DNA of 12,429 nucleotides from a virus (lineage: Duplodnaviria > Heunggongvirae > Uroviricota > Caudoviricetes), in the IMG/VR virus record IMGVR_UViG_3300035670_000139. The stretch is one strand, 5' to 3'. This document shows positions 1 through 12,429 of the stretch, in pieces (the stretch's first letter is position 1; the number at the start of each line of letters is the position of its first letter). A program made the position numbers and the translations under genes. The notes beneath the pieces are model-generated. The model ran no database searches. It saw only the letters and a list, made by a program, of their open reading frames with translations, and had not been told where the DNA came from.

Positions 1-63
1 AAAAATAAAAATCCAAACTTAATTAGATATATAAATTGTATATGTAAAATAATAAATTGTCAA
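1..63 (-). promoter_or_regulatory. Class I cassette copy 1: sigma70-type promoter + 5' hairpin + U-rich leader (driven gene lies left of the window)
   Basis: On - strand TTGACA (63-58), 17-bp spacer, TACAAT (40-35); hairpin ATCTAA-TTAAGT-TTGGAT at 28-11 with one U-G wobble; near-identical to six other copies. Confidence 0.85.
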
Positions 64-93
64 GAGTTATTTTGAAAATTTTACAAATAATCA

Positions 94-432
94 CTACTCT
101 TTGCAAAAATACTTCATTTTTTCTATAGCAGACATTTTACTGACTTTAATCACCTCCTCAGATGGATTGTTAAAATCTTTAATGGCATCACTATTTTGTC
201 TGACTGCATCTAACCGCAATGCTTCTTTGTATAATGCATGTTTTTGGTCTGGTGTTAAATCCTCTTCTATAAATGATACAGATTTGATGGCATTAGGGAA
301 CGGCAATCCTAGTGCTGCTAATTGCACTTTTATAGATGGGTCTTTTACAATTTTAATAGGATACCTATCTTTGTTTAATTCTTCTAACAAATATTGCTTT
401 TCTTTTTCACTAAACTTATTGAAATCTATCAT
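94..432 (-). CDS. Hypothetical phage protein, 112 aa, with two DUF4116-like helical repeat motifs
   Basis: ATG sits exactly at the end of the conserved cassette leader; motifs IKIVKDPSIKVQLAAL and AVRQNSDAIKDFNNPSEEV resemble the AVKQN..AI.YI.NPSEEVQL repeat type (recalled, not searched). Confidence 0.8.
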   Translation of the reverse strand: MIDFNKFSEKEKQYLLEELNKDRYPIKIVKDPSIKVQLAALGLPFPNAIKSVSFIEEDLTPDQKHALYKEALRLDAVRQNSDAIKDFNNPSEEVIKVSKMSAIEKMKYFCKE

Positions 433-515
433 AACAAAAATACAAACAACAAAAATAAAACAATCTAAACTTAATTAGATACATAAATTGTATATGTAAA
501 ATAATAATTTGTCAA
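433..515 (-). promoter_or_regulatory. Class I cassette copy 2
   Basis: TTGACA (515-510), N17, TACAAT (492-487); hairpin ATCTAA-TTAAGT-TTAGAT (480-463); U-rich leader to ATG at 432. Confidence 0.9.
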
Positions 516-720
516 GAGTTATTTTGAAAAAAATGTAAATATCTCGGGGCCGTAATCTTCACCCCTGCTATTATTGACTTGGCATCATCTTAACACTCTA
601 AATTATGCCATGTCGGGTCCGTCTTTTTATGTATTTATCTCACCATTTATTTGTTATTATTTTTATTATTTTCTTTTACCTCCCCCCTGCCCCGAACCCC
701 CAGATTCTTTTAAAACACTC

Positions 721-748
721 TTGACAAATTAAAAGATTATGTTAAACT
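721..748 (+). promoter_or_regulatory. Rightward sigma70-type promoter firing into a non-coding region
   Basis: TTGACA (721-726), 16-bp spacer, TG-n extended -10 TAAACT (743-748); resembles 9054-9083. Confidence 0.6.
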
Positions 749-754
749 TAATAG

Positions 755-881
755 TGAAGACATTTTGTAAGAATCACAAAACTGGCTTTAGTTCAAAAAA
801 GCTATTTCGGTTTAGTTGATAGTAAAACCTTACCCGCAAGTAATATTTATTTATTAACTAAACCTATTTACCTCTTTTTTT
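755..881 (+). ncRNA. Candidate ~125-nt small RNA (three predicted stem-loops then a U-tract)
   Basis: Downstream of the 721-748 promoter. Stems: 763-768/776-781; 783-789/798-804; 13-bp 809-821/852-864 whose one non-Watson-Crick pair is G-U only on the + strand, enclosing a C-GCAA-G loop (835-840). T-run ends at 881. No family recognised. Confidence 0.35.
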
Positions 882-1263
882 AAAATCCACTATATTAGCT
901 AAATAACTTAAATCTAAATACACGCACACAATTACTCTATATCTAACATTAATTACTCTGTCTATATATTAACTCATTTTAATTATTACTAAGCATTGTA
1001 ACCCCTTTTAAATCTATTTTAAGAATAAATACTCATTTACTAAGTATTTATAATTACTCTTCATGATTACTTTTTAATTATTCATTCTTTTAAATATTTT
1101 TACTTATGTAAATCAAGCACCTGCTTATATTTAAATATTCAATATAATACTAAATACTTATTAGCTTACTTAAAGCATAGCTTAAAAGCATTATTAAGAT
1201 ATACTAAAGCATTCAACCTAAAGTGTATAAGCCAAAGCACATATTAAGAAATACATACATACA

Positions 1264-1373
1264 ATCATATACAAATACACAACCATCATATACAAATACA
1301 CATAAGATGGTAAGCACACAAGAGCACGCCAAAGAATACAACAGAGAGCACGCAAGAGAGCACGCAAGAGAGC
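1264..1373. repeat. Clustered direct repeats in non-coding DNA (iteron-like)
   Basis: ATCATATACAAATACACA at 1264-1281 and 1285-1302 (21-bp period); AGAGAGCACGCA x2.6 at 1343-1373 plus a partial copy at 1321-1329. Confidence 0.85.
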
Positions 1374-1599
1374 TTTTGATGGTAATATTGAAAGTTTGTT
1401 AAAATGTTTTTGAAAACATGCAGAAAGTGTGTTAAGATGTTTTAAAGTAATGTTAAAAATGTGTTAAATTGTAATAAAAAGTAATGTTAAAATGTTTTAA
1501 AGGCGGGCAAAATGTGTTTTTTTGTTGAATTTTGGGGGGATTAATTCTCTTTTTCAACTAAAAACACCACAATTCCCTACACCCCCTCCCTCAAAAACA

Positions 1600-1816
1600 G
1601 GTCTCCACATAGGGGCAAAACCTGCCTCGCCCCCCATTCTATCAGCATTCATAATTTTACATAACATATTTCAACTTTTATCAATACAAGCAACTCCAGT
1701 TTTAGATTGTTTTAGCTAGTTTTTCACGGATTTTTTGACTATTTTTGAAAAAAGTGTAAAAAATTGACCCCTTGATTTTATTGGCTTGAATGCGGTTTTG
1801 ACCCCTAGTGGAGACC
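1600..1816. repeat. Imperfect 23-bp inverted repeat pair enclosing ~170 bp
   Basis: GGTCTCCACATAGGGGCAAAACC (1600-1622) vs reverse complement of 1794-1816, GGTCTCCACTAGGGGTCAAAACC: 22 matches, two 1-nt indels. Confidence 0.75.
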
Positions 1817-1847
1817 AAGTTTTATGTTGTTTTTGATTGAACGGATT

Positions 1848-2201
1848 TTAGTAAAATTTGTTTGGGTCATTATCTATTATTGTGATATGTAAAATCTTGA
1901 GTTTAAAGTCACTACTTATTCCTCCTAGTAAAAAAGCAATTATACTCACTATTACATTATGCCAAATTAAGTGTATCATTGTTAAGCAGTAAAGTCCGTT
2001 GATGCAAAATAATAACAACATCTTAAAGCAATGTAAATAACAATGACTTAATAATATTTTTAAGGTAAAAAGTATTTGTAATTTGCCATTTACTTTGATT
2101 GGTTGAACTTTATTCAAATTGACATCTTTTAACATAAAGTTTGTAAATCTTTTGTTGTTTAAAAACATTACAAGAGCAAGTATCAATTTTATAGCTTCCA
2201 T
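1848..2201 (-). CDS. Hypothetical hydrophobic (probably membrane) protein, 117 aa
   Basis: ORF track; hydrophobic N-terminus and two hydrophobic stretches in the C-terminal half; last gene of the leftward chain. Start uncertain. Confidence 0.55.
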   Translation of the reverse strand: MEAIKLILALVMFLNNKRFTNFMLKDVNLNKVQPIKVNGKLQILFTLKILLSHCYLHCFKMLLLFCINGLYCLTMIHLIWHNVIVSIIAFLLGGISSDFKLKILHITIIDNDPNKFY

Positions 2202-2239
2202 AACAAAATGAATAAATAAATCATCGCCACTGCAAGCAT
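2189..2239 (-). CDS. Candidate 16-aa hydrophobic peptide MLAVAMIYLFILLWKL
   Basis: Hand-translated; start overlaps the previous stop as TAATG and its end overlaps the next ATG (2201), consistent with translational coupling. Confidence 0.3.
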   Translation of the reverse strand: MLAVAMIYLFILLWKL

Positions 2240-2307
2240 TACAATATCACCACACATAAAATAACAAACATAAAAATACAACATCTTATCAATTTTACCA
2301 GTTCCAT
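2239..2307 (-). CDS. Candidate 22-aa hydrophobic peptide MELVKLIRCCIFMFVILCVVIL
   Basis: Hand-translated; N-terminus MELVKLI resembles MEAIKLI of 1848-2201; fills the gap in the gene chain. Confidence 0.4.
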   Translation of the reverse strand: MELVKLIRCCIFMFVILCVVIL

Positions 2308-2341
2308 CAATTTTAAAGCCCAGCTATATAGCTTCCATATA

Positions 2342-2617
2342 TTACATAGACTTTAGTCCAAATATTCCTATTAGAAATAATAATCCACTAAGAAGAACCA
2401 ATACAAAGGCACACCACTCATCAAAGCTATGTTCCACGCATCTGCCAGATGCTACGATATAAAATGTCATTCCAAAGCATAAAACACTACTAAAAAAACA
2501 AAATACACTAACACTCGGCAAGCCAAAGATTATTAAGCCAGTAAGATACATACCTAAGCCAATAGTAAGTAAAATACCGCTAATACTAAAATCAAAAAAC
2601 TTTTTAAACCAAAACAT
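2342..2617 (-). CDS. Hypothetical membrane protein, 91 aa, about 3 TM segments
   Basis: ORF track; three hydrophobic stretches; U-rich leader TTTTATTATTTTTATTTTGAATTATG identical to the one before 2752. Confidence 0.75.
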   Translation of the reverse strand: MFWFKKFFDFSISGILLTIGLGMYLTGLIIFGLPSVSVFCFFSSVLCFGMTFYIVASGRCVEHSFDEWCAFVLVLLSGLLFLIGIFGLKSM

Positions 2618-2641
2618 AATTCAAAATAAAAATAATAAAAA

Positions 2642-2752
2642 CTAATCTTCTTTTTCTAAGTTTGTAAGTAAATCTTTCATTCTTTGTAATATTTCTTGTA
2701 TATCTTTAAAGTTTTGTTCTATGTCTTTATTTAATTTATCATACTCTTCCAT
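2642..2752 (-). CDS. 36-aa charged helical peptide MEEYDKLNKDIEQNFKDIQEILQRMKDLLTNLEKED
   Basis: Hand-translated; shares a 26-nt leader+ATG block with the 2617 gene (2615-2640 vs 2750-2775); heptad-like pattern. Confidence 0.65.
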   Translation of the reverse strand: MEEYDKLNKDIEQNFKDIQEILQRMKDLLTNLEKED

Positions 2753-2808
2753 AATTCAAAATAAAAATAATAAAAAACCCAAAAAAATTAAACCCTTGAT
2801 TCTATTGA

Positions 2809-2955
2809 CTAAAATGCTTTTGGTAATATAATTGCTATCAAGCCACCTGCCAAGCAAGTCAATACTATGCCTTGCCAAAGATATACATCTTTTAATGTTG
2901 TAAAAAACAACAAAGTTCAAATCCAATACATTCTCATAAAAGTCTTTTTTTTCAT
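2809..2955 (-). pseudogene. 48-codon membrane-peptide frame interrupted by an in-frame TGA (2919-2917)
   Basis: MKKKTFMRMYWI-TGA-TLLFFTTLKDVYLWQGIVLTCLAGGLIAIILPKAF-TAG reads as one two-TM protein if TGA was TGG; alternatively a TTG start after the TGA. Confidence 0.4.
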
Positions 2956-2960
2956 ATTCA

Positions 2961-3041
2961 CTACTGAAAAATAATACAAAATAACAACACTATAGCCACC
3001 GCAGACAAAATTTTAAATCTGTTTAATAGAAATTGCAACAT
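2961..3041 (-). CDS. 26-aa membrane peptide MLQFLLNRFKILSAVAIVLLFCIIFQ
   Basis: Hand-translated; paralog of 4941-5021 (15/26 identical aa, same length, both end FQ-TAG). Confidence 0.7.
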   Translation of the reverse strand: MLQFLLNRFKILSAVAIVLLFCIIFQ

Positions 3042-3047
3042 ATAGAT

Positions 3048-3407
3048 TTAATTAGTAACAACCATTCTACATTGACTAAAATAGAAACCAGTCCACAATG
3101 ATAATATCTTAATCTCATCATAGTCTATATGTAATGGTATAGACCTGCAATATTCTAATTCACTTTTAGTAAATGGATTCTCTTCGTTAATTACATTTTG
3201 TTTTAACCATTGAATTAAAGTCAATGTATTTAATAATGCAATATCCTGCTCTTCTTTGAAACTATACCAAACTTTGTAAAATTGCATTAAATTAAAACTT
3301 TCACCAATATCTTTTAAAGCACTTATCCTGTCAATAAAGTTATTGTCTTTTGCAAACACTCTATCACTTTGCATTTTACTAATATCGGTTCTTATGATTC
3401 TAGCCAT
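3048..3407 (-). CDS. Hypothetical protein, 119 aa (start revised from 3464 to ATG at 3407)
   Basis: ATG preceded by U-rich TGTGTTATG leader; the track's extension overlaps the upstream 41-aa ORF. Confidence 0.7.
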   Translation of the reverse strand: MARIIRTDISKMQSDRVFAKDNNFIDRISALKDIGESFNLMQFYKVWYSFKEEQDIALLNTLTLIQWLKQNVINEENPFTKSELEYCRSIPLHIDYDEIKILSLWTGFYFSQCRMVVTN

Positions 3408-3430
3408 AACACATTCAATAACAATAAAAA

Positions 3431-3556
3431 CTAAACTTCTTGATTCAAATAAAATTGCAACCATTCTTCTTTGATTTTAGTGTATAGCTCGGCTTTAGAT
3501 TGCTCTTCTTCCGCTCTTATTTTATCATTAAAATAATCCATTATACACTTTAACAT
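3431..3556 (-). CDS. 41-aa peptide MLKCIMDYFNDKIRAEEEQSKAELYTKIKEEWLQFYLNQEV
   Basis: Hand-translated; ATG lies at the end of the class II promoter leader (TTTGTGTTTATG). Confidence 0.65.
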   Translation of the reverse strand: MLKCIMDYFNDKIRAEEEQSKAELYTKIKEEWLQFYLNQEV

Positions 3557-3633
3557 AAACACAAATATCAATAAAAATATCAAAGTATAAACTTTAATAC
3601 ATAAAGTTTATACTATTCTTTTTAAAATGTAAG
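3557..3633 (-). promoter_or_regulatory. Class II cassette copy A: promoter overlapped by a perfect 13-bp inverted repeat
   Basis: CTTACA (3633-3628), N17, TAAACT (3610-3605); AGTATAAACTTTA-N5-TAAAGTTTATACT at 3584-3614; duplicated at 5408-5489. Confidence 0.7.
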
Positions 3634-3667
3634 TATTATTTTGAAAGATTTTTATAAAATAATACAA

Positions 3668-4363
3668 CTAAGAAAATCTTTTTTGATATTCTACAGCCTT
3701 TTTAAACAACGCAGGGTCGTTTTCAAATACTTTATTACAATATCTAAAAGCAAAACCCAAAGACTTCCCATCCTTTATACAATACTCTACAGCCTTTTTA
3801 AACAACGCAGGGTCGTTTTTAAAAGCTTTATTACAATATCTAAAAGCCACACACAAATACCTCCCGTTCTTTATACAATACTCTACAGCCTTTTTAAACA
3901 ACTCTAAATCTTTTTCAAATACTTTATTGCAATATTCAAAAGCATCATACAAATACTCCCCCTTCTTTATATAATACTCTACAGCCTTTTTAAACAACTC
4001 TGGATTTTTTGCAAATGCTTTGTGGCAATATCTAAAAGCCACACACAAATACCCCCCCTTCTTTATATAATACTCTACAGCCTTTTTAAACAACTCTGGA
4101 TTTTTTTCAAACAATTCTTGACAATATCTAAAAGCATAATACAAATTCAACTTATTCTCTATAGCTAAATCCAATCCTTTTTTAAACTCCTCTATCGTCT
4201 CAACACATTGAAAAAGCAACACTGCAAAATAGTAGTTTTTATCCTTCAAACATCTTTCCATTAATTCAATTACTTCCCACTCTTGTTTTTCTAAAGACTT
4301 AAAGTATTTAATACCATCTCCATAAGCCTCCTTACTATTTAAAACACCTAAAGTAACTAACAT
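3668..4363 (-). CDS. Helical repeat protein, 231 aa: N-terminal domain + five 32-aa repeats (DUF4116-like solenoid)
   Basis: Unit AF[RE]YCNK.F.K[DN]P.LFKKAVEY.IK.G..L..; 96-bp DNA period (CTAC at 3691, 3787, 3883, 3979, 4075); paralog of 6792-7391. Confidence 0.85.
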   Translation of the reverse strand: MLVTLGVLNSKEAYGDGIKYFKSLEKQEWEVIELMERCLKDKNYYFAVLLFQCVETIEEFKKGLDLAIENKLNLYYAFRYCQELFEKNPELFKKAVEYYIKKGGYLCVAFRYCHKAFAKNPELFKKAVEYYIKKGEYLYDAFEYCNKVFEKDLELFKKAVEYCIKNGRYLCVAFRYCNKAFKNDPALFKKAVEYCIKDGKSLGFAFRYCNKVFENDPALFKKAVEYQKRFS

Positions 4364-4448
4364 AACAAAAATACAAACAACAAAAATAAAAACTATCTAA
4401 ACTAAGTTTAGATACATAAATTCTATAACATTTTCTTATTAAAGTCAA
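4364..4448 (-). promoter_or_regulatory. Class I cassette copy 3 (variant), overlapping the 3' end of the upstream ORF
   Basis: TTGACT (4448-4443), N17, TAGAAT (4425-4420); hairpin ATCTAAAC-TTA-GTTTAGAT (4413-4395). Confidence 0.8.
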
Positions 4449-4662
4449 CTGTTTTTTTAAAATGTAACCAATACGCATATTCTATTCTGCTATCCTTACT
4501 ACACCTCACCATCAATTCTAAAACATCCCATTCTTGTTTTTCTAATGTTTTAAAGTATTCCTTAAACCTATTACAAGCATTATACCTTTCTAAAAATTCT
4601 AAATTAATTATATCTTCCTTAAAGTTATAACATTTTACCAAGAAATCTAAATTAATATCCAT
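4423..4662 (-). CDS. 79-aa truncated paralog: N-terminal domain of the repeat proteins with no repeats
   Basis: LEFLERYNACNRFKEYFKTLEKQEWDVLELMVRCSKDSRIEYAYWL aligns with LDVLESKDACEAGIKYFKSLEKQEWEVIELMERCFKDKREDYATWL of 6792-7391; first in-frame ATG at 4662. Confidence 0.65.
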   Translation of the reverse strand: MDINLDFLVKCYNFKEDIINLEFLERYNACNRFKEYFKTLEKQEWDVLELMVRCSKDSRIEYAYWLHFKKTVDFNKKML

Positions 4663-4669
4663 ACAACAT

Positions 4670-4745
4670 AACAAACAAACAACAAAAATAATATCTAAAC
4701 TTAATTAGACATATAAATTGTATAACACTTTATTACCGAAGTCAA
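4670..4745 (-). promoter_or_regulatory. Class I cassette copy 4 (variant)
   Basis: TTGACT (4745-4740), N17, TACAAT (4722-4717); hairpin GTCTAA-TTAAGT-TTAGAT (4710-4693); shortened leader. Confidence 0.8.
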
Positions 4746-4753
4746 GTGTTTTC

Positions 4754-4867
4754 TTAAAATATTTTATTCAACAATACCTTCGGCAAGCATATACGGTTGT
4801 AACTACAAGTCAATCCTAAGTAAAGATTTTTTAATTCTTTGCTTTTTAAACCAAATTTTTTTAACAT
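4754..4867 (-). CDS. Candidate 37-aa peptide MLKKFGLKSKELKNLYLGLTCSYNRICLPKVLLNKIF
   Basis: Hand-translated; starts at a TTTTGTTATG leader; last 37 nt identical to 7480-7516 but read in another frame. Confidence 0.4.
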   Translation of the reverse strand: MLKKFGLKSKELKNLYLGLTCSYNRICLPKVLLNKIF

Positions 4868-4940
4868 AACAAAACTAAGAATTACTTAAAACAAGACATA
4901 CAATCCAAATAATAGTAACAAGTATAGTTAAACTAAAAAA

Positions 4941-5021
4941 CTATTGAAATAATATACAAAAAACCAATACAATACTCACGGCTCCCAAAACCTTCAATCT
5001 ATCAAAAATAAATATTTTCAT
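4941..5021 (-). CDS. 26-aa membrane peptide MKIFIFDRLKVLGAVSIVLVFCILFQ
   Basis: Hand-translated; paralog of 2961-3041 with conservative substitutions and diverged codons. Confidence 0.7.
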   Translation of the reverse strand: MKIFIFDRLKVLGAVSIVLVFCILFQ

Positions 5022-5068
5022 ATAACAAACTACAAATCATATTCACCTTAAAGAGTAAATGATAATTA

Positions 5069-5407
5069 CTAAATAACATCTTCCAAGCAATCATTTTCAA
5101 TTTCCGCAACCCTCTCTTGAATCCGTGTAAGTAAATTCTTACTTAATCTTTTAGCTGCATTCTTTGTTTTGTATTTACCTAAGTGCTTATTAGCTTTGTT
5201 AATTTTTTTAAGCTCTTCTTTGTCTTTTATATCCTCGCCAAAATATACATCTGTATAATAGACATCACCACAAGAGTAATCTAAGTTGCTACCAAACGAA
5301 CCTACAACATCACCATTCTTAAAGGCAATAGTTAAGCTATCTAGAAACTTCTTATTTTCAAAAATAATTACATTATCAAGAAAATTGTAATCTTGTTTTT
5401 TAGACAT
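5069..5407 (-). CDS. Hypothetical protein, 112 aa (start revised to ATG at 5407)
   Basis: ORF track; ATG at the end of the class II leader; basic C-terminal helix. Confidence 0.75.
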   Translation of the reverse strand: MSKKQDYNFLDNVIIFENKKFLDSLTIAFKNGDVVGSFGSNLDYSCGDVYYTDVYFGEDIKDKEELKKINKANKHLGKYKTKNAAKRLSKNLLTRIQERVAEIENDCLEDVI

Positions 5408-5489
5408 AATCAAAACACAAATATCAATAAAAATATCAAAGTATAAACTTTAATACATAAAGTTTATACTATTCTTTTTAAAATGTTAA
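5408..5489 (-). promoter_or_regulatory. Class II cassette copy B
   Basis: TTAACA (5489-5484), N17, TAAACT (5466-5461); identical 13-bp inverted repeat at 5440-5470. Confidence 0.75.
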
Positions 5490-5510
5490 GTATTATTTTA
5501 AAATAAATCT

Positions 5511-6272
5511 TTAGTTTTGACGGTAAATATACATAACATCCTTAAAAACTATTTGATTATCATTATCTGTTATGTCTAATGATATTTCATGTTCTTTACC
5601 ATTATAACCAGCTAAAACAACTCCCCTGCCGTCTTTTTTACAATCTGTAATAAATTGCTCTATATCAAAGTAACGCTCTATTTTTTCAAAAACATCCTCA
5701 TTAATTCCTAATAATTCTGCAACTGCAACATTATATCTATAATAATCATCAACCATATCGTCTGCCCTTGCATCATCTACGACTATATAATCTCTGTTAA
5801 AAATTTTAAATACTTCATCATCATTTTCTTCTGTTATTTCTAATAAACATTCTATAGGTAATAAAAACTTATTTTGTAAATGCTTTAATAAAGCCAAAGC
5901 CCTGCCAATATCATTAAATTTTACTTCATTATCAACTAAAAAGTTATTAATAATATCAAACATCTCTGTATCTGTTTTGTTATTTAATAATGCAATATCT
6001 CTCTTTCTTTCAACCTCTTCTACGGCTTCGCATAAAGAGTTAAATTCTGTCAAGTAAGCACCTTGTGTGTGGTCATGTTTTAAAACAAACTCTATTAAAG
6101 CATTTTGCCTTTCGTTAGCACCTTTCGCAACTTCAAGATTTTTTATACTACCCTCAATTGTAAATACATTATTATAAGCCCATTTTGTATCATCAGTATT
6201 TTGTCTATACTCATACTTTATTTTAATAGACTTCTTATGTAAATCTAAAAATTTTACCACTCTTTCTAACAT
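5511..6272 (-). CDS. 253-aa protein with an acidic C-terminal domain, possibly ArdA-like antirestriction/DNA mimic (start revised to 6272)
   Basis: C-terminal YFDIEQFITDCKKDGRGVVLAGYNGKEHE...YIYRQN recalls the YFD.E.F..D motif of ArdA C-terminal domains; D/E-rich middle. Family call from memory only. Confidence 0.5.
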   Translation of the reverse strand: MLERVVKFLDLHKKSIKIKYEYRQNTDDTKWAYNNVFTIEGSIKNLEVAKGANERQNALIEFVLKHDHTQGAYLTEFNSLCEAVEEVERKRDIALLNNKTDTEMFDIINNFLVDNEVKFNDIGRALALLKHLQNKFLLPIECLLEITEENDDEVFKIFNRDYIVVDDARADDMVDDYYRYNVAVAELLGINEDVFEKIERYFDIEQFITDCKKDGRGVVLAGYNGKEHEISLDITDNDNQIVFKDVMYIYRQN

Positions 6273-6320
6273 AATCAAAAAAACAAATAAAAAAACCTTA
6301 ATCAAAAAAACAAATAAAAA
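6272..6320. repeat. Tandem duplication of a 22-bp U-rich leader
   Basis: TAATCAAAAAAACAAATAAAAA at 6272-6293 and 6299-6320. Confidence 0.85.
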
Positions 6321-6324
6321 TAAT

Positions 6325-6675
6325 TTACATTTGTTTTAATAATGTTTCATCGCTAATAACTTTATCATAAAATCTTAAATCAAGACTTTTATCGCAAGAA
6401 ACTCTTACATCTTTCTTAAAAACATCTACTTGTTTTAAACTTTTTATCTGCCCTACATCAAGATATTTTAAACTAACAAAATCACTTAAGTCAATATTTG
6501 AGATTGGTAGTCTAGCAACATCTAAGCAAAGAGTGTCTTGTTGATTAACAAACTTTATCTTACCTTTTACTTTAACACTATTTACATAAGCAGGAACACG
6601 AACATCTTTTTGATTTTCGCAATCAAGTATTAGCACACTGCCTTCTTTACTAACCTTATTTATACTAAAAATCAT
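6325..6675 (-). CDS. Hypothetical protein, 116 aa, with an LRR-like stretch
   Basis: ATG at cassette copy 5; LPISNIDLSDFVSLKYLDVGQIKSLKQVDV shows LxxLxL periodicity. Confidence 0.75.
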   Translation of the reverse strand: MIFSINKVSKEGSVLILDCENQKDVRVPAYVNSVKVKGKIKFVNQQDTLCLDVARLPISNIDLSDFVSLKYLDVGQIKSLKQVDVFKKDVRVSCDKSLDLRFYDKVISDETLLKQM

Positions 6676-6758
6676 AACAAAATCAATAACAACAAAAATA
6701 AAAATCTAAACTAACATTTAGATATATAAATTGTATATGTAAAATAATAAATTGTCAA
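6676..6758 (-). promoter_or_regulatory. Class I cassette copy 5
   Basis: TTGACA (6758-6753), N17, TACAAT (6735-6730); hairpin ATCTAAA-TGTTAG-TTTAGAT (6723-6704). Confidence 0.9.
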
Positions 6759-6791
6759 GTATTATTTTAAAATTCTTTTAAAATAATAAAA

Positions 6792-7391
6792 TTAAGAAAA
6801 TTGTTTTTGATGCTCTAAGGCTTTTTTATGCAACGCAGGGTCGTTTTCAAAAGCTTTATTACAATATCTAAAAGCAAAACCCAAACACCTCCCCATCTTT
6901 ATCTCATACTCTACAGCCTTTTTAAACAACTCTGGATTTTTTGCAAATGCTTTATTGCAATCTTCAAAAACCCAATGCAAACACCACTCATTCTCTATAT
7001 AATACTCTACAGCCTTTTTAAACAACTCTGGATTTTTTGCAAATACTTTATTGCAATATTCAAAAGCAAAACCCAAAACCTCCCCCTTCTTTATATAATA
7101 CTCTACTGCTTTTTTAAACAACTCTAAATCTTTTTCAAAAGCTTTATTACAATATTCAAAAGCAAAATGCAAATACCCTTCATTCTTTATAGTTAAATCT
7201 ATTGCTTTTCCCAATTCCTCTATCGTCTCAACACATTTAAAAAGCCATGTTGCATAATCCTCTCGCTTATCCTTAAAACACCTTTCCATCAACTCAATCA
7301 CTTCCCATTCTTGTTTTTCTAAAGACTTAAAGTATTTAATGCCAGCTTCACAAGCATCTTTACTCTCTAAAACATCCAAAGTAACTAACAT
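6792..7391 (-). CDS. Helical repeat protein, 199 aa: N-terminal domain + four 32-aa repeats
   Basis: Paralog of 3668-4363, exactly 32 aa (one repeat) shorter; 96-bp period (6815, 6911, 7007, 7103). Confidence 0.85.
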   Translation of the reverse strand: MLVTLDVLESKDACEAGIKYFKSLEKQEWEVIELMERCFKDKREDYATWLFKCVETIEELGKAIDLTIKNEGYLHFAFEYCNKAFEKDLELFKKAVEYYIKKGEVLGFAFEYCNKVFAKNPELFKKAVEYYIENEWCLHWVFEDCNKAFAKNPELFKKAVEYEIKMGRCLGFAFRYCNKAFENDPALHKKALEHQKQFS

Positions 7392-7472
7392 AACAAAAAT
7401 ACAAACAACAAAAATAAAAATCTAAACTTAATTAGATATATAAATTGTATATCTAAAATAATAAAATGTCAA
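7392..7472 (-). promoter_or_regulatory. Class I cassette copy 6
   Basis: TTGACA (7472-7467), N17, TACAAT (7449-7444); hairpin at 7437-7420. Confidence 0.9.
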
Positions 7473-7489
7473 GAGTTTTTTAAAATATT

Positions 7490-7957
7490 TTATTCAACAA
7501 TACCTTCGGCAAGCATTTTGTGGTTCTTGTAATTACACAATCTTGCAAGACGTATAAGAGGTTTGTACTTCTCGGGGTTATCAAGTTTTTGCAATTGACT
7601 TTTAAATATTTGTGTAATCATTGTTTCTATATCTACCTCTCCCTTTTTTGCTTGCCATTCTTTTTTTATTCTATCTTGTGTGTCGTTGTCTGTTACTCTC
7701 TTGTCAATTTCAATAGTGTAATATTCTTGTTCCGACCAGTAAGATTGTCTGTTGTAGCTTAACTTGTAAGCGGCTTTAAAACTCTCGCTTCCATCTTCAT
7801 GTCTTTCTTTTACACTAAAGTAGCCTGTTAGACCTAAGCCTGTAGGCTTGCTAATTAAACATTCTATTATCAATTCTTTTGTTTTTTTTATTACGATTTT
7901 AATAGAATTTTGATTAGCTTCTTGAAAAACTAAAGCAATATGTTCTAGGTTTATCAT
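7490..7957 (-). CDS. Hypothetical protein, 155 aa
   Basis: ORF track; U-rich leader; third gene of the unit driven by copy 7. Confidence 0.75.
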   Translation of the reverse strand: MINLEHIALVFQEANQNSIKIVIKKTKELIIECLISKPTGLGLTGYFSVKERHEDGSESFKAAYKLSYNRQSYWSEQEYYTIEIDKRVTDNDTQDRIKKEWQAKKGEVDIETMITQIFKSQLQKLDNPEKYKPLIRLARLCNYKNHKMLAEGIVE

Positions 7958-7983
7958 ACATCCAATAATAATACAAAAAAAAA

Positions 7984-8466
7984 TTAAATTAATTTTAAAT
8001 ACTCATTATAATTTTCAACAAGTTCTTGACCTTTGTCTAAGCGATTCACTTGATATTCAATTATTTTCAATAAGTTTTTATCAAGTCTTTTGCATTCAAG
8101 CGGGCTTATGTAGGTGTAATAACCTTTTATAAAATCCTTAATTAAAGCCTTATTATCATAGTTTTTTATCATGTAATTAGCATAACACTCATCGGGGCGA
8201 CCATGATATTTTGCTTTTATTGCATTTTCTAAAAATACTCTATCATTGAGTTGTTCATGATTTGCTATACCATTTTCAAATTGAAATATTCCATTGTCAA
8301 ATTGCAATTTTGTTTTACTATGCTCATATTTAAAAACAAACCAATCTGTAGAATGCCAGCCCATTACATAACCATTAGAAAAATAGACAAATTGCCACTC
8401 TTTTTTTTTACTATACGGCTGTTTTATTACAAAGATTTTATTCAAAAAGTTTAAGTTTTTTTTCAT
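7984..8466 (-). CDS. Hypothetical protein, 160 aa
   Basis: ORF track; tightly packed between neighbours. Confidence 0.75.
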   Translation of the reverse strand: MKKNLNFLNKIFVIKQPYSKKKEWQFVYFSNGYVMGWHSTDWFVFKYEHSKTKLQFDNGIFQFENGIANHEQLNDRVFLENAIKAKYHGRPDECYANYMIKNYDNKALIKDFIKGYYTYISPLECKRLDKNLLKIIEYQVNRLDKGQELVENYNEYLKLI

Positions 8467-8478
8467 ATAGTTATTAAA

Positions 8479-8754
8479 TTAATATGCTAAAATTCTTGCA
8501 ATAAGCTCGTGTTCGTTGTTGCTTTCAATATAGCTTACGAAGTTACCACCTGCTCTTGCCTCAAGAAAAACTACTAGACTCTCTGCGGTTTGCTTGCAAT
8601 CCTTAGCAACTATTATGCTTTGTTTTGCAAGCCTGCGGATAGACTTGTAATAATCTTTTTTTATATGCTTATCTTTGCAAGTCAAACTTTCAAAATAAGC
8701 TTGTTTAATTACACTTTTGGCAAGTGTAATTACTGATTCATTTATTTCTAACAT
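8479..8754 (-). CDS. Hypothetical protein, 91 aa
   Basis: ORF track; ATG at the end of cassette copy 7 leader. Confidence 0.8.
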   Translation of the reverse strand: MLEINESVITLAKSVIKQAYFESLTCKDKHIKKDYYKSIRRLAKQSIIVAKDCKQTAESLVVFLEARAGGNFVSYIESNNEHELIARILAY

Positions 8755-8836
8755 AACAAAAATACAAACAACAAAAATAAAATCTAAATCAAGATTTAGA
8801 TATATAAATTGTATATCTAAAATAATAAATTGTCAA
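8755..8836 (-). promoter_or_regulatory. Class I cassette copy 7
   Basis: TTGACA (8836-8831), N17, TACAAT (8813-8808); hairpin ATCTAAAT-CTTG-ATTTAGAT (8801-8782). Confidence 0.9.
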
Positions 8837-9053
8837 GTGTTTTTTTAAAAATAATGTAAATATTTTTTAATCAAGTTGCGAGGTTGTGTTCCATTGAGTC
8901 AGGCTGCGGTAAAATATAAAACAGGGGGTGGGGTCAGTTGCCAAGCCCTTCTTAACCCCCCCAAATTTTTTTTTAAATTTTTTTTCCCAAAAATTCCCCC
9001 CTTTACCCCACACGCGCGATACCACATTTCCAAACTTTTGTCAACAAAAATAC

Positions 9054-9083
9054 TTGACAAACCAAAAATACTATGTTAAAACT
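9054..9083 (+). promoter_or_regulatory. Putative rightward promoter of the packaging operon
   Basis: TTGACA (9054-9059), N17, TG-n-TAAAAC (9077-9082; imperfect -10); similar to 721-748. Confidence 0.5.
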
Positions 9084-9106
9084 TTAAAAAATATTTGTGT
9101 TTTACA

Positions 9107-9511
9107 ATGACAAAGACAGAACAACTTAAGGCATGGAATGCACTATGTCGGCTTCGGCATCTCTTAACAAACCCAAATACTATTCATACAATAGAGTTAG
9201 GTATAGAAGATGCGGCTCGGCTAATTTACACAAACCAGTTAAGTAAAAAAATTTCGGCTCAGTTCAGATTAGAGATATTGAGTATTACACATATATGGAT
9301 TTCAAAAAAAGAAGAAGATAAAGAATTTAACACGGATTTTGATATTTTTACAATGAGTGAAGATGAAATATGCGGGCTAGTTCAAAAGTTAGAAATAGAA
9401 TCGCCAAAAATTTTTCATTGGGGTCAATTTGTAAAAATAAAAAAGGAAGTAAAGAGAAAGAAAAAGATACGGCAAATTTTGGCTTTTATAAAAAAATTTG
9501 TAAAAAGATAA
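9107..9511 (+). CDS. Hypothetical protein, 134 aa, basic C-terminus (start revised from TTG 9095 to ATG 9107)
   Basis: First ATG after the promoter, U-rich leader; stop is 1 nt before the next ATG. Confidence 0.75.
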   Translation: MTKTEQLKAWNALCRLRHLLTNPNTIHTIELGIEDAARLIYTNQLSKKISAQFRLEILSITHIWISKKEEDKEFNTDFDIFTMSEDEICGLVQKLEIESPKIFHWGQFVKIKKEVKRKKKIRQILAFIKKFVKR

Positions 9512-9512
9512 G

Positions 9513-11849
9513 ATGACATTGTTGTCGGATTTGAAGAGTGATATGAGTGAAGACATTGCTGTCTTTTCACTTACACCTAAAGAGTTACATACTTTTGTTT
9601 CCCTTAGGTATCCTTTTATATATAGATTTTTAACTTACTTTGCTAAAGAAGCAGTATATTTTTATAAACAAGAAGAGGTCAATTATTTTGCTCTCAGAGA
9701 TTCTAATGGTTCTTATACTAGATTAAGAATACAACTGCATAAAGATTTTTTATTAGAGTTTGAAGCAAAATATAGTAAGGCTATTACAAAATATTTAGAA
9801 GAGTGTAAAAAATATTTACTAGAGTATGGTAATGATGGATATTCACATGTTATAAGGAGTGATATTTACAAGAAACAAGATTTAACAAATTATTGTGCTG
9901 ATTATTTTAAGTATAACTGGCTTGAGGATAAAAATTATTTTGTAGATAGATTTAAGGTAATTGAGAAGGGCAAGAAAGTAGATATTACAGCAAAACATTG
10001 GATTGCTAATAATAAAGCTTTAACAATGGATTTTTCTAAAGCAGGTAAGATCACCTTTCCACAAATCAACATGTTAAAAAAAGCGGTAGAGCAAGGAAGA
10101 GGGATGAAGACTTTATTGCCAGAAGAGCAATGTATGGTTGAAGATGGTAAGTGGAATTTTGGATTTAACTATCCAGAGTGGATATATACAGGGGGCAATC
10201 TTAGGACTGCTTTGCCACTATATATATGCCATTCTTTTTTAAAAAAGTTTTATCTTTTAACTAAAGCTTTAATTCTTAGTTATCAAAATGAGTTAGAGGC
10301 AAGATGTTTATCCGCACAAGAATCGCATATTGCTTTAACTAAATTAAAACCCACTACTTCAGTTCCTAAATTTTTACTTGACCATCAAAAGTTAAGATTA
10401 CAAAATAGAAAAGAAATTGTGTTATTGTCAACCTATAAAGCATTAACACCTAAGCATGGTAATTTATCATATTCTAAAGTTAATTGTTTTACAAAAGACC
10501 AGCATAACTTAATAGATAAATTGTATGATGAAATGGCTAGAGAGGATGTTGCTGATATATCTACAAATGCAAAATTTGAAGAAGAGTTTTCAAAATTGGA
10601 TCCTGCTTTACAATTAATGGTAAATTTATCGGCTATGACACAAAAAACAGATTTAGAAAATGGAATTCAGGAGTGGCTCAAGATTTTGAAAAAAAATCCA
10701 AAGTTTTATGACTTAGTTCAGTCTAATATTTTACTAGAATACGACAAGCAAGCAAATCAAAATACTCAAAATTTAGATTTATGTATGACAAATATGCAAA
10801 AAATTGACAAATACAATAATGCCTTGATTAAAAAAGAGGAAAAAACATTGGCAAGCTATGATAAAAAATTTAAAAAGGTTTTGCAAGATGATAAAGACAT
10901 TGAGATAGAAATAAATAATGCGGCTATAAAGAAAAAAAAGGCATTAGACTACACTTTAAAAAATGCACCACAAAAATTGTTGCATAATGCCTTGTTAGGA
11001 GCAACACAATTATGTGAACTAGCAGGTATAGAGTTGCAAGATAATAACGAAATAATGCAAGTTGCCAAAAATAGTGCCAAAATGGAGCTTTATTATAAAC
11101 AAGTAGATGCACAATTGACTTTAATACACATGAATTTAAAAAATCTTAAAGAACAAAAGCAACAAGCTGAAAAAACAAAGATAGAAAGAATAAAGCAATG
11201 TAATAAAATGACACAAACTTTGTATATGAAGGCATTTGAACAGTATTCTGTAGGTGAAGAGGCTGGGAAAAATGTTACTACTATGATTGCAAAGGTTATT
11301 GAGTCTAAAAATGCAAGTGATAAACCTGCGGATAAAGAAATGTTAGATGTTTTGACTAAATTATATGAGTATTTTAATACTAAAAAGGTTGGAAAAGGTT
11401 ATCAAGATGAAAGTGGATTGATAGTTGCTGAAGTTGGACGCCAAAATGGTGAAAATTTTTACACCAAAAGCGTTGCAACAAATGATTTTATGAGTAATCT
11501 ACAAATAATTAACGGCACTTTGCAAAAATTATTTATAGACCCTATAAAACAAGAAATAGAAGCAATAAATGAGCAAATAAAAACTGAAGAAGAGGATATT
11601 GCAAGAATACAAAAAGATATACAGTTAAAAACTAAGCTACAAACAACACACAGTGGTATGATGTTGATGGAACTACGAGGATTGCAAGAAATTAAGGCAA
11701 ATAGATTGAAAAATGACTTGCAAAAACAAAAATTAGAAAAAGGTCATATTGAAAAAAATGGTTTAAATGATATGAAGATAATAAATGCTCCTGAGGCACA
11801 GATTATTATTGACAATGATTTTGATAATGAGATTATACAAGATGTATAA
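9513..11849 (+). CDS. 778-aa protein with a long C-terminal coiled coil, in the terminase small subunit position
   Basis: Long ORF; K/E/Q/L-rich heptads in the C-terminal half; ends 3 nt before the terminase ATG. No family recognised. Confidence 0.85.
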   Translation: MTLLSDLKSDMSEDIAVFSLTPKELHTFVSLRYPFIYRFLTYFAKEAVYFYKQEEVNYFALRDSNGSYTRLRIQLHKDFLLEFEAKYSKAITKYLEECKKYLLEYGNDGYSHVIRSDIYKKQDLTNYCADYFKYNWLEDKNYFVDRFKVIEKGKKVDITAKHWIANNKALTMDFSKAGKITFPQINMLKKAVEQGRGMKTLLPEEQCMVEDGKWNFGFNYPEWIYTGGNLRTALPLYICHSFLKKFYLLTKALILSYQNELEARCLSAQESHIALTKLKPTTSVPKFLLDHQKLRLQNRKEIVLLSTYKALTPKHGNLSYSKVNCFTKDQHNLIDKLYDEMAREDVADISTNAKFEEEFSKLDPALQLMVNLSAMTQKTDLENGIQEWLKILKKNPKFYDLVQSNILLEYDKQANQNTQNLDLCMTNMQKIDKYNNALIKKEEKTLASYDKKFKKVLQDDKDIEIEINNAAIKKKKALDYTLKNAPQKLLHNALLGATQLCELAGIELQDNNEIMQVAKNSAKMELYYKQVDAQLTLIHMNLKNLKEQKQQAEKTKIERIKQCNKMTQTLYMKAFEQYSVGEEAGKNVTTMIAKVIESKNASDKPADKEMLDVLTKLYEYFNTKKVGKGYQDESGLIVAEVGRQNGENFYTKSVATNDFMSNLQIINGTLQKLFIDPIKQEIEAINEQIKTEEEDIARIQKDIQLKTKLQTTHSGMMLMELRGLQEIKANRLKNDLQKQKLEKGHIEKNGLNDMKIINAPEAQIIIDNDFDNEIIQDV

Positions 11850-11852
11850 TAT

Positions 11853-12429
11853 ATGATGGACAATACCTCTTCGGCTTTATTTTTTACTCAAGAGCAGATA
11901 GAAAATAAAAGAGCAGAGTTTTTTGCTTTAGCCGATAGTTATTTTTGGTATTATACAAGGTATATAGAACTACATGATTGTGAATCGCTTGCAAAAGATA
12001 TTACATGTAGAACCCCATGGCATCCTGCTGCTGCAACTGCTTTACAAAAATTTGAAGAATGCGACTATGACACAAATTATTTTATTTTAAATGCAACAGT
12101 GCGTTTAGGTAAAACAAGACTTTGCACTGCCTTATGGGCTACTTGGCTTTTTGGTAAAGACCCAAAAACAAAAATTTTAATTGTTACAAAGCAAGATGAA
12201 AATAAAAAAAAGATAGCAAAAGAAATAGAAGCAATTTTATTATCTGAATGCTATCAAAAGTTATTTCCTAAAGTAAATATAACTGGTAAAGGTGTTAAAA
12301 GAATAGCACAAAAAGATGGAGGTGTTATACAGTTTAGCACAAGTGGAAGTAATGTTAGGGGTATGGGTTTTGACCATATTATTTTAGATGACTTTTTAGA
12401 TAAACAACATTTAATGGAGTCAAGTGGGG
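11853..12429 (+). CDS. terL: Terminase large subunit, N-terminal ATPase domain (partial, runs off the window)
   Basis: Hand-translated open frame of 192 codons: Walker A FILNATVRLGKT (RLGKT at 12102-12116), WLFGKDPKTKILIV, YQKLFP, Walker B GMGFDHIILDD (12360-12392), the motif order of Terminase_6-type large subunits. Confidence 0.85.
   Translation, partial: MMDNTSSALFFTQEQIENKRAEFFALADSYFWYYTRYIELHDCESLAKDITCRTPWHPAAATALQKFEECDYDTNYFILNATVRLGKTRLCTALWATWLFGKDPKTKILIVTKQDENKKKIAKEIEAILLSECYQKLFPKVNITGKGVKRIAQKDGGVIQFSTSGSNVRGMGFDHIILDDFLDKQHLMESSG

Follow-up and report, generated by a model that had tools for sequence, protein, structure and literature searches.

Promoter-early-stem-loop (PeSL) cassettes are known from the T4-like myoviruses RB49/phi1, T4/PST and KVP40/nt-1 (Arbiol et al. 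2010, PMC2839356; Comeau et al. 2014, PMC4122927), where each consists of an AT-rich tract, a sigma-70-like promoter, a stem-loop in one of five positions, a Shine-Dalgarno site and an ATG (PMC2839356; PMC4122927). The stem-loop subclasses include those lying over the -10 hexamer and those just downstream of it (PMC2839356). PeSL stem-loops terminate transcription, crossovers occur inside the motif, and mini-circles have been described (PMC2839356; PMC4122927). AT-rich promoter/stem-loop elements at the internal-protein (IP) loci of T-even phages are analogues of PeSLs (PMC2839356). In the literature that we searched, only T4-like phages and the giant phages related to them are described as shuffling genes through PeSLs. 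Here we analyze an array of repeated promoter-like cassettes in the IMG/VR virus record IMGVR_UViG_3300035670_000139, a stretch of 12,429 nucleotides (the window) from an uncultured freshwater phage of the Caudoviricetes with a GC content of approximately 28%. We suggest, with a probability of roughly three in four, that the repeats are copies of one regulatory module that doubles as portable homology in a phage that is not T4-like.

Anatomy of the cassette array

To a pattern describing the more frequent class of cassette, termed C-type (TTGACW-N17-TASAAT followed by TTATRTRTCTAA, allowing up to three mismatches), the window gave exactly seven matches, all on the minus strand, against a mean of 0.00 and a maximum of 0 in 200 dinucleotide-preserving shuffles. 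The seven near-identical minus-strand copies reported in a preliminary description of this DNA are thus directly observed repeats. An nhmmer profile made from the copies recovered each of them at E-values of 1e-15 to 5e-23 over approximately 105–115 nt, so the repeated unit is real but longer than the 85 bp or so first given, since the upstream A/T-rich tract is conserved as well. The first count, correct for these seven, had also missed two sister copies, termed V-type (V1 and V2, Table 1), which align with the C type over their whole length. The seven C-type and two V-type copies make nine promoter-like modules, arranged as direct repeats within 8.8 kb; among the C-type copies the longest exact match is 42 nt.

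The C-type module reads, in order, an A/T-rich tract, TTGAC(A/T), a 17-nt spacer, TA(C/G)AAT, six bases, an inverted repeat of the form (A/G)TCTAA...TTAGAT, a U-rich stretch and an ATG. All seven copies carry both hexamers together with the conserved upstream A/T tract, so that the sigma-70-like promoter of PeSLs has its counterpart here. The hexamers and the 17-nt spacing are invariant, and the spacer itself is one of three unrelated sequences, the first shared by c1, c2, c5, c6 and c7, the second by c3, c4 and one relative's copy, and the third by the V type. Such invariance is the signature expected of a sigma-70-type promoter, from which promoter activity and early timing are predicted. 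Past the -10 hexamer only positions 5 and 7 vary, always as a purine, which fits a transcription start at the first base of the hairpin. The inverted repeat is present in every C-type copy, 6–7 nt past the -10 hexamer and hence at the predicted +1, as had been stated before, and its stems are of 6–9 bp (-3.6 to -7.1 kcal/mol). In the V type, both copies of which have a degenerate -35 hexamer and TAAACT as the -10, a perfect 12-bp palindrome (-13.4 kcal/mol, z -4.2 to -4.6; z -3.1 to -3.4 with its flanks) covers the -10 hexamer and +1 and is followed by a U-rich tract. Both classes therefore have a stem-loop attached to the promoter, as PeSLs do.

The leader ATG is the start of the next open reading frame (ORF) in c2, c3, c5, c6 and c7, in agreement with the preliminary description. 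That the leaders lack a Shine-Dalgarno site also holds, but the feature is not specific to the cassettes: no gene start in the window, on either strand, has such a site, which makes the absence a trait of the phage and presumably also of its host. A Bacteroidota-type promoter (TTTG / TAnnTTTG), considered because of this absence, fits neither cassette type on inspection.

Leaders of the same kind occur in the window without a promoter. One ending GAATTATG precedes each of two adjacent small ORFs of 36 and 91 amino acids (window 2617–2760), of which the 91-aa product is a predicted membrane protein. From these promoterless copies, U-rich leaders seem to be a general start signal in this phage. 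Another stands in tandem duplicate at window 6263–6322, just before a 253-aa ORF, where AAG closes the first copy and ATG the second; similarity between the window and the related contig L008 ends near the same place.

Rearrangements among relatives and their interpretation

GC content varies between 26 and 33% along the window, the plus-strand end of which encodes the N terminus of a large terminase (TerL; PHROG 38, E 2e-24). The array faces away from the packaging and head genes, from which an intergenic region rich in G-runs separates it. The full-length TerL, obtained from a protein collection, gives only marginal matches to cultured phages (33% identity over 17% of its length, to Klebsiella myophages) and no match to T4-likes, its score against the Pfam T4-type terminase N-domain lies below the cut-off, and the window has no near-identical nucleotide match in 50,697 phage records; together these results indicate that the carrier is not T4-like. 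The TerL N terminus has no relative in IMG/VR. The cassette pattern and two relaxed versions of it likewise have no matches in IMG/VR or in 185,579 species genomes, so that metagenome contigs are the only place where the cassette family is seen. A pattern scan of metagenomes returned 32 matches, the true carriers being only four contigs of one sample and the rest single chance matches. Further relatives, all of them short-read metagenome contigs like the first, were found through exact-protein look-ups, although for the 112-aa cargo protein an exact-sequence look-up gave no match.

Two of the arrangements compared below were each recovered twice. Contig L043, from another sample, matches window positions 10–11896 at 99.96% identity with 5 mismatches, and L036 matches L034 over 4215 nt at 99.8%, having come from a different sample and a different assembler. 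As the longest exact C-to-C match of 42 nt is below the largest k-mer sizes usual in assemblers, mis-joins are unlikely. On the strength of the two independent assemblies and the short exact repeats, the contig arrangements are taken as real.

Three rearrangements bounded by cassettes are seen directly among these natural relatives. Where L034 has a cassette, the gene of a 199-aa repeat protein and a second cassette, in L035 there is a single hybrid cassette, matching the first L034 cassette in its upstream flank and the second in its leader and cargo. Similarly, L034 and L036 carry a cassette, five genes (2.4 kb), another cassette and a homologue of the 112-aa cargo gene, and in the window and L043 a single hybrid, c2, leads directly into the 112-aa gene; the hybrid follows one copy at approximately 98% identity up to the hairpin and the other copy beyond it. 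Finally, from inside the c5 leader onward the window holds 3.2 kb (c5, V2, c4, c3, V1 and their cargo), and thereby four additional cassettes, in the place taken by a 171-aa gene in L034. The crossover intervals of the three events differ, lying at the loop for c2, between the -35 hexamer and the middle of the leader for L035, and in the leader for c5. Like PeSLs, then, these modules show indels and replacements with crossovers inside the motif, in two cassette-to-cassette indels and one replacement that starts within a leader. The same cassette precedes different cargo in contigs L008, L001 and L048, one more unit is present upstream of c7 in L035, and among 24 C-type copies in the contigs scanned the first cargo gene belongs to 9 unrelated families. 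The preliminary description had named a fixed gene order among relatives as the outcome that would count against it; what the relatives show is gain and loss of genes at cassette borders, and its view of PeSL-like modules at which genes are shuffled is upheld by the breakpoints inside cassettes.

Comparison of the cassettes with their flanks points in the same direction. Between c7 and the cassette at the corresponding position in L034 identity is 89%, next to a gene that is 98.6% identical, and c7 is 90% identical to a copy in L048, where the neighbouring genes have only 85%, 73% and 56% identity. That cassettes remain approximately 90% identical whether their flanks are 99% or 56% identical indicates exchange among the copies. 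Variants of the segment before the loop, of the loop, of the segment after it and of the leader recur in different combinations at different positions and in different genomes. One relative, with a TerL of 71% identity, carries V-type cassettes only, and there the same three genes each stand behind a V-type rather than a C-type cassette. From these patterns the cassette copies appear to behave as a pool that exchanges sequence under constraint.

The window ORFs and the relatives' cargo scanned included no family of integrases, transposases or other recombinases. This, together with crossover points that are not fixed, makes passive recombination of the homologous or annealing type the likeliest route, and the mechanism is most likely such recombination between reiterated modules, as proposed for PeSLs. 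The earlier wording of a gene capture and shuffling system is thus borne out as regards shuffling at the cassettes, but not as regards dedicated capture machinery: with no recombinase among the ORFs scanned and with varying crossover points, passive homologous recombination fits better. A mosaic contig, L033, shares part of the array, placed beside replication genes, and encodes a RecE-like exonuclease and an Erf-type annealing protein. RecE-like exonucleases and Erf-type annealing proteins act on short homologies.

We propose the following model. The module would combine an A/T-rich UP-like tract, a near-consensus host sigma-70-type promoter (TTGACA-17-TACAAT), an inverted repeat at the start and a U-rich leader, and from each copy a short run of one to five small accessory genes would be transcribed and translated. 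These genes are oriented away from the packaging and head genes and probably belong to the early class. Whether inside a single genome or between relatives infecting the same cell, homologous recombination between copies would delete, insert, duplicate or swap whole expression units with their regulation intact, and the same recombination would keep the copies alike. The pathway would be general recombination or a phage-encoded single-strand annealing one rather than a site-specific enzyme.

Several observations weigh against this reading of the array. Two junctions, those that left a 41-aa gene remnant and a 27-nt scar (Table 1), lie outside cassettes, so that not all of the shuffling is homologous. 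Contigs end inside cassettes at the start of the window, the start of L035, the end of L008 and both ends of L030, which means that assembly graphs branch there and that some joins could be chimeric; only two arrangements (window/L043 and L034/L036) are confirmed twice. Transcription starts, early timing and promoter strength are predicted from the consensus, and a canonical sigma-70 promoter together with absent Shine-Dalgarno sites is an unusual and unexplained pairing. As to the hairpin, 15 distinct copies taken from the window and its relatives share one invariant core stem; the covariation test, which saw no change on both sides of a pair, did no better than shuffles and thus leaves an RNA structure putative, and entire C-type cassettes fold no more stably than shuffled sequence (z +0.9 to -1.3). 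A V-type transcript would begin inside the palindrome, and a role as a 5' hairpin therefore cannot fit both types. One relative even has a cassette with no hairpin (L033 4828–4904).

For the C type our first choice for the role of the inverted repeat is nevertheless that of a 5'-terminal stabilizer, the alternative being a terminator or attenuator of read-through transcripts. In that alternative, which we hold as a tentative possibility, the inverted repeat and the U-run form an intrinsic element that insulates the units from read-through, as PeSL stem-loops do, and these have been found to terminate experimentally (PMC2839356). In the V type the -10 hexamer lies in the 5' arm: the V hairpin can form only in read-through RNA or in DNA, so only RNA arriving from upstream would form it and be stopped, and the strong palindrome with its U-rich tract, described above, speaks for this reading. 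A run of T's also directly follows every C-type hairpin. A consensus scan for GC-rich terminators found 3 in the window against 3.8 expected and none between genes within the array. The former statement that no terminators separate the units accordingly holds for GC-rich ones, but the V-type palindrome and the C-type hairpin, each with its U-run, could terminate or attenuate; their AT-rich stems, at -13.4 and -3.6 to -7.1 kcal/mol respectively, are not called by the GC-based scan. Against termination stand the weakness of the C stems, which have at most one or two G-C pairs and of which the weakest is matched by 9–11 of 200 shuffles, the fact that C-type hairpins would form in the cassette's own transcripts too, and the hairpin-less cassette of L033.

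We think it unlikely that the inverted repeats are instead DNA operators through which a dimeric phage or host regulator switches the promoter set together, C and V being two regulatory classes. The palindromes do overlap the -10 hexamer and +1, the classical position of an operator, the stem sequence is conserved without covarying, and the V palindrome is identical in the relative with a TerL only 71% identical. However, the distance between C half-sites varies, the hairpins being 18, 19 or 20 nt long with at least eight loop variants, which dimeric operators rarely tolerate, and all departures from Watson-Crick pairing in C stems, except in a single L048 copy, are G-U-compatible on the sense strand only. 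These two features argue against a dimeric operator of fixed spacing and mildly in favor of an RNA or single-strand hairpin. An 11-bp palindrome that flanks the -10 hexamer in some C copies could be counted for the operator, but in most copies it is imperfect, and family scans found no DNA-binding domain among the window ORFs. A palindrome around the -10 hexamer was rejected as a universal feature of the cassettes, being perfect only in c6, c7 and some L048 copies.

It is improbable that the cassettes are ordinary reiterated early promoters and nothing else, the rearrangements being assembly artefacts or the use of intergenic sites that tolerate breakpoints. Reiterated strong early promoters are common in lytic phages, and every comparison made here is between short-read metagenome contigs, many of which end in cassettes. 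Yet two arrangements were each recovered in two samples, exact C-to-C repeats do not exceed 42 nt, and the variant contigs differ from each other by 2–12% in their flanks, which makes them separate lineages rather than a single genome's collapsed copies. Real past events at cassette borders are recorded in the twice-assembled window by diverged scars and by remnants of genes, and the identity of cassettes is uncoupled from the divergence of their flanks.

More improbable still is a stem that is the target of an unrecognized structure-specific recombination activity encoded elsewhere in the phage; were it so, the array would be a phage-borne, integron-like capture system whose units bring their own promoter and leader and whose circles move units between co-infecting phages. 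The poorest chance falls to dedicated gene capture as such, with the conserved hairpin as the site of a structure- or site-specific recombinase, like the attC of integrons, and with promoter-plus-gene units moving as circles: the invariant stem with its free loop resembles folded recombination sites, indels with cassettes at both ends do leave one hybrid cassette, and one crossover falls at the hairpin loop, but the ORFs and cargo scanned include no recombinase family, the three events differ in crossover interval, some junctions lie outside cassettes, V-type and hairpin-less cassettes join the same array, and approximately 110 nt at approximately 90% identity are ample for general or annealing recombination.

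Cargo and neighbouring regions

Most cargo proteins have no family match, and Pfam and PHROG scans of the cargo other than the 253-aa protein gave nothing above threshold. The commonest cargo behind cassettes is a family of repeat proteins (F2) of 79–263 aa, which share an N-terminal domain followed by a variable number of 32-aa (96-nt) helical repeats; the number of repeats differs among full-length members, and the family also occurs in L030, L034, L035, L008, L033 and L047. Its score against Pfam DUF4116 is below the cut-off, and Atlas gives weak YdhT_N / Imm5-like structural leads. The 253-aa protein scores 15.3 bits against the ArdA family (PF07275; gathering cut-off 27), and of its homologues collected by an exhaustive phmmer search 23 of 36 match ArdA individually, the best at E 2.6e-8. 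Its AF2 model (pLDDT 89) had no ArdA match in Foldseek pdb or in the VIA wide search, and a profile search against the PDB did not confirm the ArdA lead. An anti-restriction role for this protein, the one cargo with such a signal, is thus only a lead, and the early, anti-defence cargo suggested in the preliminary description is putative.

Table 1. Cassettes, cargo genes and junction features; positions refer to the window unless a contig is named.
Feature	Position	Strand	C-type pattern match	Description
C-type cassette c1	1–87	minus	23–63	Window edge cuts inside the leader
C-type cassette c2	433–540	minus	475–515	Predicted to drive the 112-aa ORF, opened by its leader ATG; hybrid of the two cassettes flanking the 2.4-kb block in L034/L036
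V-type cassette V1	3553–3655	minus		Degenerate -35; -10 TAAACT; 12-bp palindrome over -10 and +1; U-rich leader; ATG fused to gene remnant
C-type cassette c3	4364–4475	minus	4408–4448	TTGACT-N17-TAGAAT; predicted to drive the 231-aa repeat protein (ORF 3668–4363, opened by leader ATG); promoter within 3' end of truncated upstream ORF
C-type cassette c4	4670–4765	minus	4705–4745	TTGACT, different spacer, short leader; leader ATG out of frame, ORF start 8 nt later at 4662
V-type cassette V2	5409–5505	minus		74 nt identical to V1; predicted to drive a 112-aa ORF (5069–5407)
C-type cassette c5	6676–6779	minus	6718–6758	-35 at 6758–6753; predicted to drive the 116-aa ORF, opened by its leader ATG; left border of the 3.2-kb block absent in L034
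C-type cassette c6	7392–7494	minus	7432–7472	-35 at 7472–7467; predicted to drive the 199-aa repeat protein (ORF 6792–7391, opened by leader ATG)
C-type cassette c7	8755–8858	minus	8796–8836	-35 at 8836–8831, -10 at 8813–8808, hairpin ~8801–8782; A/T tract, U-rich leader; ATG at 8754 opens ORF 8479–8754
112-aa ORF	94–432	minus		Cargo of c2; L036 homologue behind a different cassette, 2.4 kb further on
41-aa ORF	3431–3556	minus		C-terminal remnant (last 40 codons) of the 171-aa gene intact in L034; in-frame fusion to the V1 ATG, illegitimate junction
231-aa protein of 32-aa helical repeats (F2)	3668–4363	minus		Cargo of c3; paralogues at 6792–7391 and 4423–4662
79-aa ORF	4423–4662	minus		N-terminal domain only of the repeat-protein family; truncated paralogue reading into the c3 promoter
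Scar	4764–4790	minus		Last 27 nt (9 codons and stop) of the 155-aa gene 7490–7957, repeated upstream of c4
253-aa cargo protein	5511–6272	minus		Weak ArdA-like C-terminal half in sequence comparison; fold searches give no support
116-aa ORF	6325–6675	minus		Cargo of c5; no family match
199-aa repeat protein (F2)	6792–7391	minus		Cargo of c6
Operon of 91-, 160- and 155-aa ORFs	7490–8754	minus		Cargo of c7; no family match
Genes of mosaic contig L033: RecE-like exonuclease, Erf-type annealing protein, IS1595-type transposase gene	L033 1627–2631, 6717–7391, 13874–14620			

The scar together with its upstream tract forms a 37-nt exact match to the flank of c6. In L033 the IS1595-type transposase gene abuts a cassette remnant that retains the leader only.

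Inside the array lies a 1.3-kb stretch with no convincing ORF (window 520–1860) that is 98.8% identical to L034, and hence more conserved than most of the flanking genes. The distant relative L048 retains parts of it, and it contains several G-runs, unusual at 28% GC. It has no Rfam or tRNA match; Rfam at E-values up to 1 gave only a spurious lncRNA match, and the tRNA scan found none. Within it, at approximately 1590–1830, an element of approximately 230 nt is closed by an imperfect inverted repeat of approximately 30 bp (GGTCTCCAC...GTGGAGACC) and is predicted to fold on either strand, with -63 kcal/mol (z -2.9) for the minus and -60 kcal/mol (z -4.0) for the plus. At window position 1600, precisely at the right arm of the element, the window ceases to be homologous to L033, L037 and L038. 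The element could be a structured RNA, a small element with terminal inverted repeats, or a module boundary.

Between the array and the packaging genes, the region at window 8860–9060 has runs of G and C and long A/T runs that are conserved in the relative whose TerL is only 71% identical (L047, approximately 2230–2330); its candidate roles are those of an origin, a packaging site or a regulatory region. Just upstream of TerL, a 778-aa protein (window 9513–11849) has no Pfam or PHROG match, and its position is conserved in a distant relative, where the protein has 773 aa (L045).

Comparison with known systems

The cassettes share their layout and setting with PeSLs. In both, a stop codon is followed by an AT-rich tract, sigma-70-like -35 and -10 hexamers and a stem-loop over or just past the -10, and the last element of the module is the start codon of a small gene without known relatives; the copies are densely repeated in a variable region, and close relatives differ by insertions, deletions and replacements, with crossovers in the motif that leave a chimeric motif behind. 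The position of the hairpin relative to the -10 hexamer is not a new feature, as PeSL stem-loops are already found there (PMC2839356). In contrast to PeSLs, the cassettes described here are carried by a phage that is not T4-like and have no sequence homology to PeSLs, their stems are AT-rich and weak where those of PeSLs are often of polyG/polyC, and there are two interchangeable hairpin classes. They have the start codon but lack the Shine-Dalgarno site, in the place of which stands a conserved U-rich leader.

The IP loci of T-even phages are analogous, though not homologous, in having weaker AT-rich stem-loops of variable size beside early promoters, flanking small, shuffled genes for injected or adaptive proteins. 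Those loci, however, use T4-specific early promoters and are two in number and small, whereas the promoters here are of the canonical sigma-70 type and the array extends over at least 8.8 kb. Integrons (IntI, attI, attC) share with the array co-oriented, small and unrelated genes separated by a repeat with an inverted repeat, and the gain and loss of whole units. Their cassettes are promoterless, served by a single Pc promoter and a tyrosine recombinase that acts at folded attC sites; here each unit has its own promoter, the ORFs scanned contained no recombinase and the crossover points are not fixed, so that the array does not qualify as an integron. Stabilizing stem-loops at the 5' end of bacterial mRNAs, such as that of the ompA 5' UTR, and S1-dependent A/U-rich translation enhancers offer a further parallel. 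As with stabilizers of the ompA type, the C-type hairpin begins at the predicted first transcribed purine and leads into an unstructured, U-rich leader that lacks a Shine-Dalgarno site, but the V type is unable to form its hairpin in its own transcript.

The module may be of use beyond this phage: as a compact natural unit of promoter, 5' hairpin and U-rich leader, it is a candidate for studying how translation starts without Shine-Dalgarno pairing. The crossovers, resolved to the nucleotide across natural populations from several samples, support the idea that reiterated early promoter/leader modules are a general route by which phages exchange accessory genes, perhaps including anti-defence genes, without disturbing their regulation. 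By analogy, the array would work as PeSLs do without being a member of the PeSL family as defined, and it is best regarded as a non-homologous, independent PeSL-like case outside the T4-like phages, found in an uncultured freshwater phage with AT-rich DNA.

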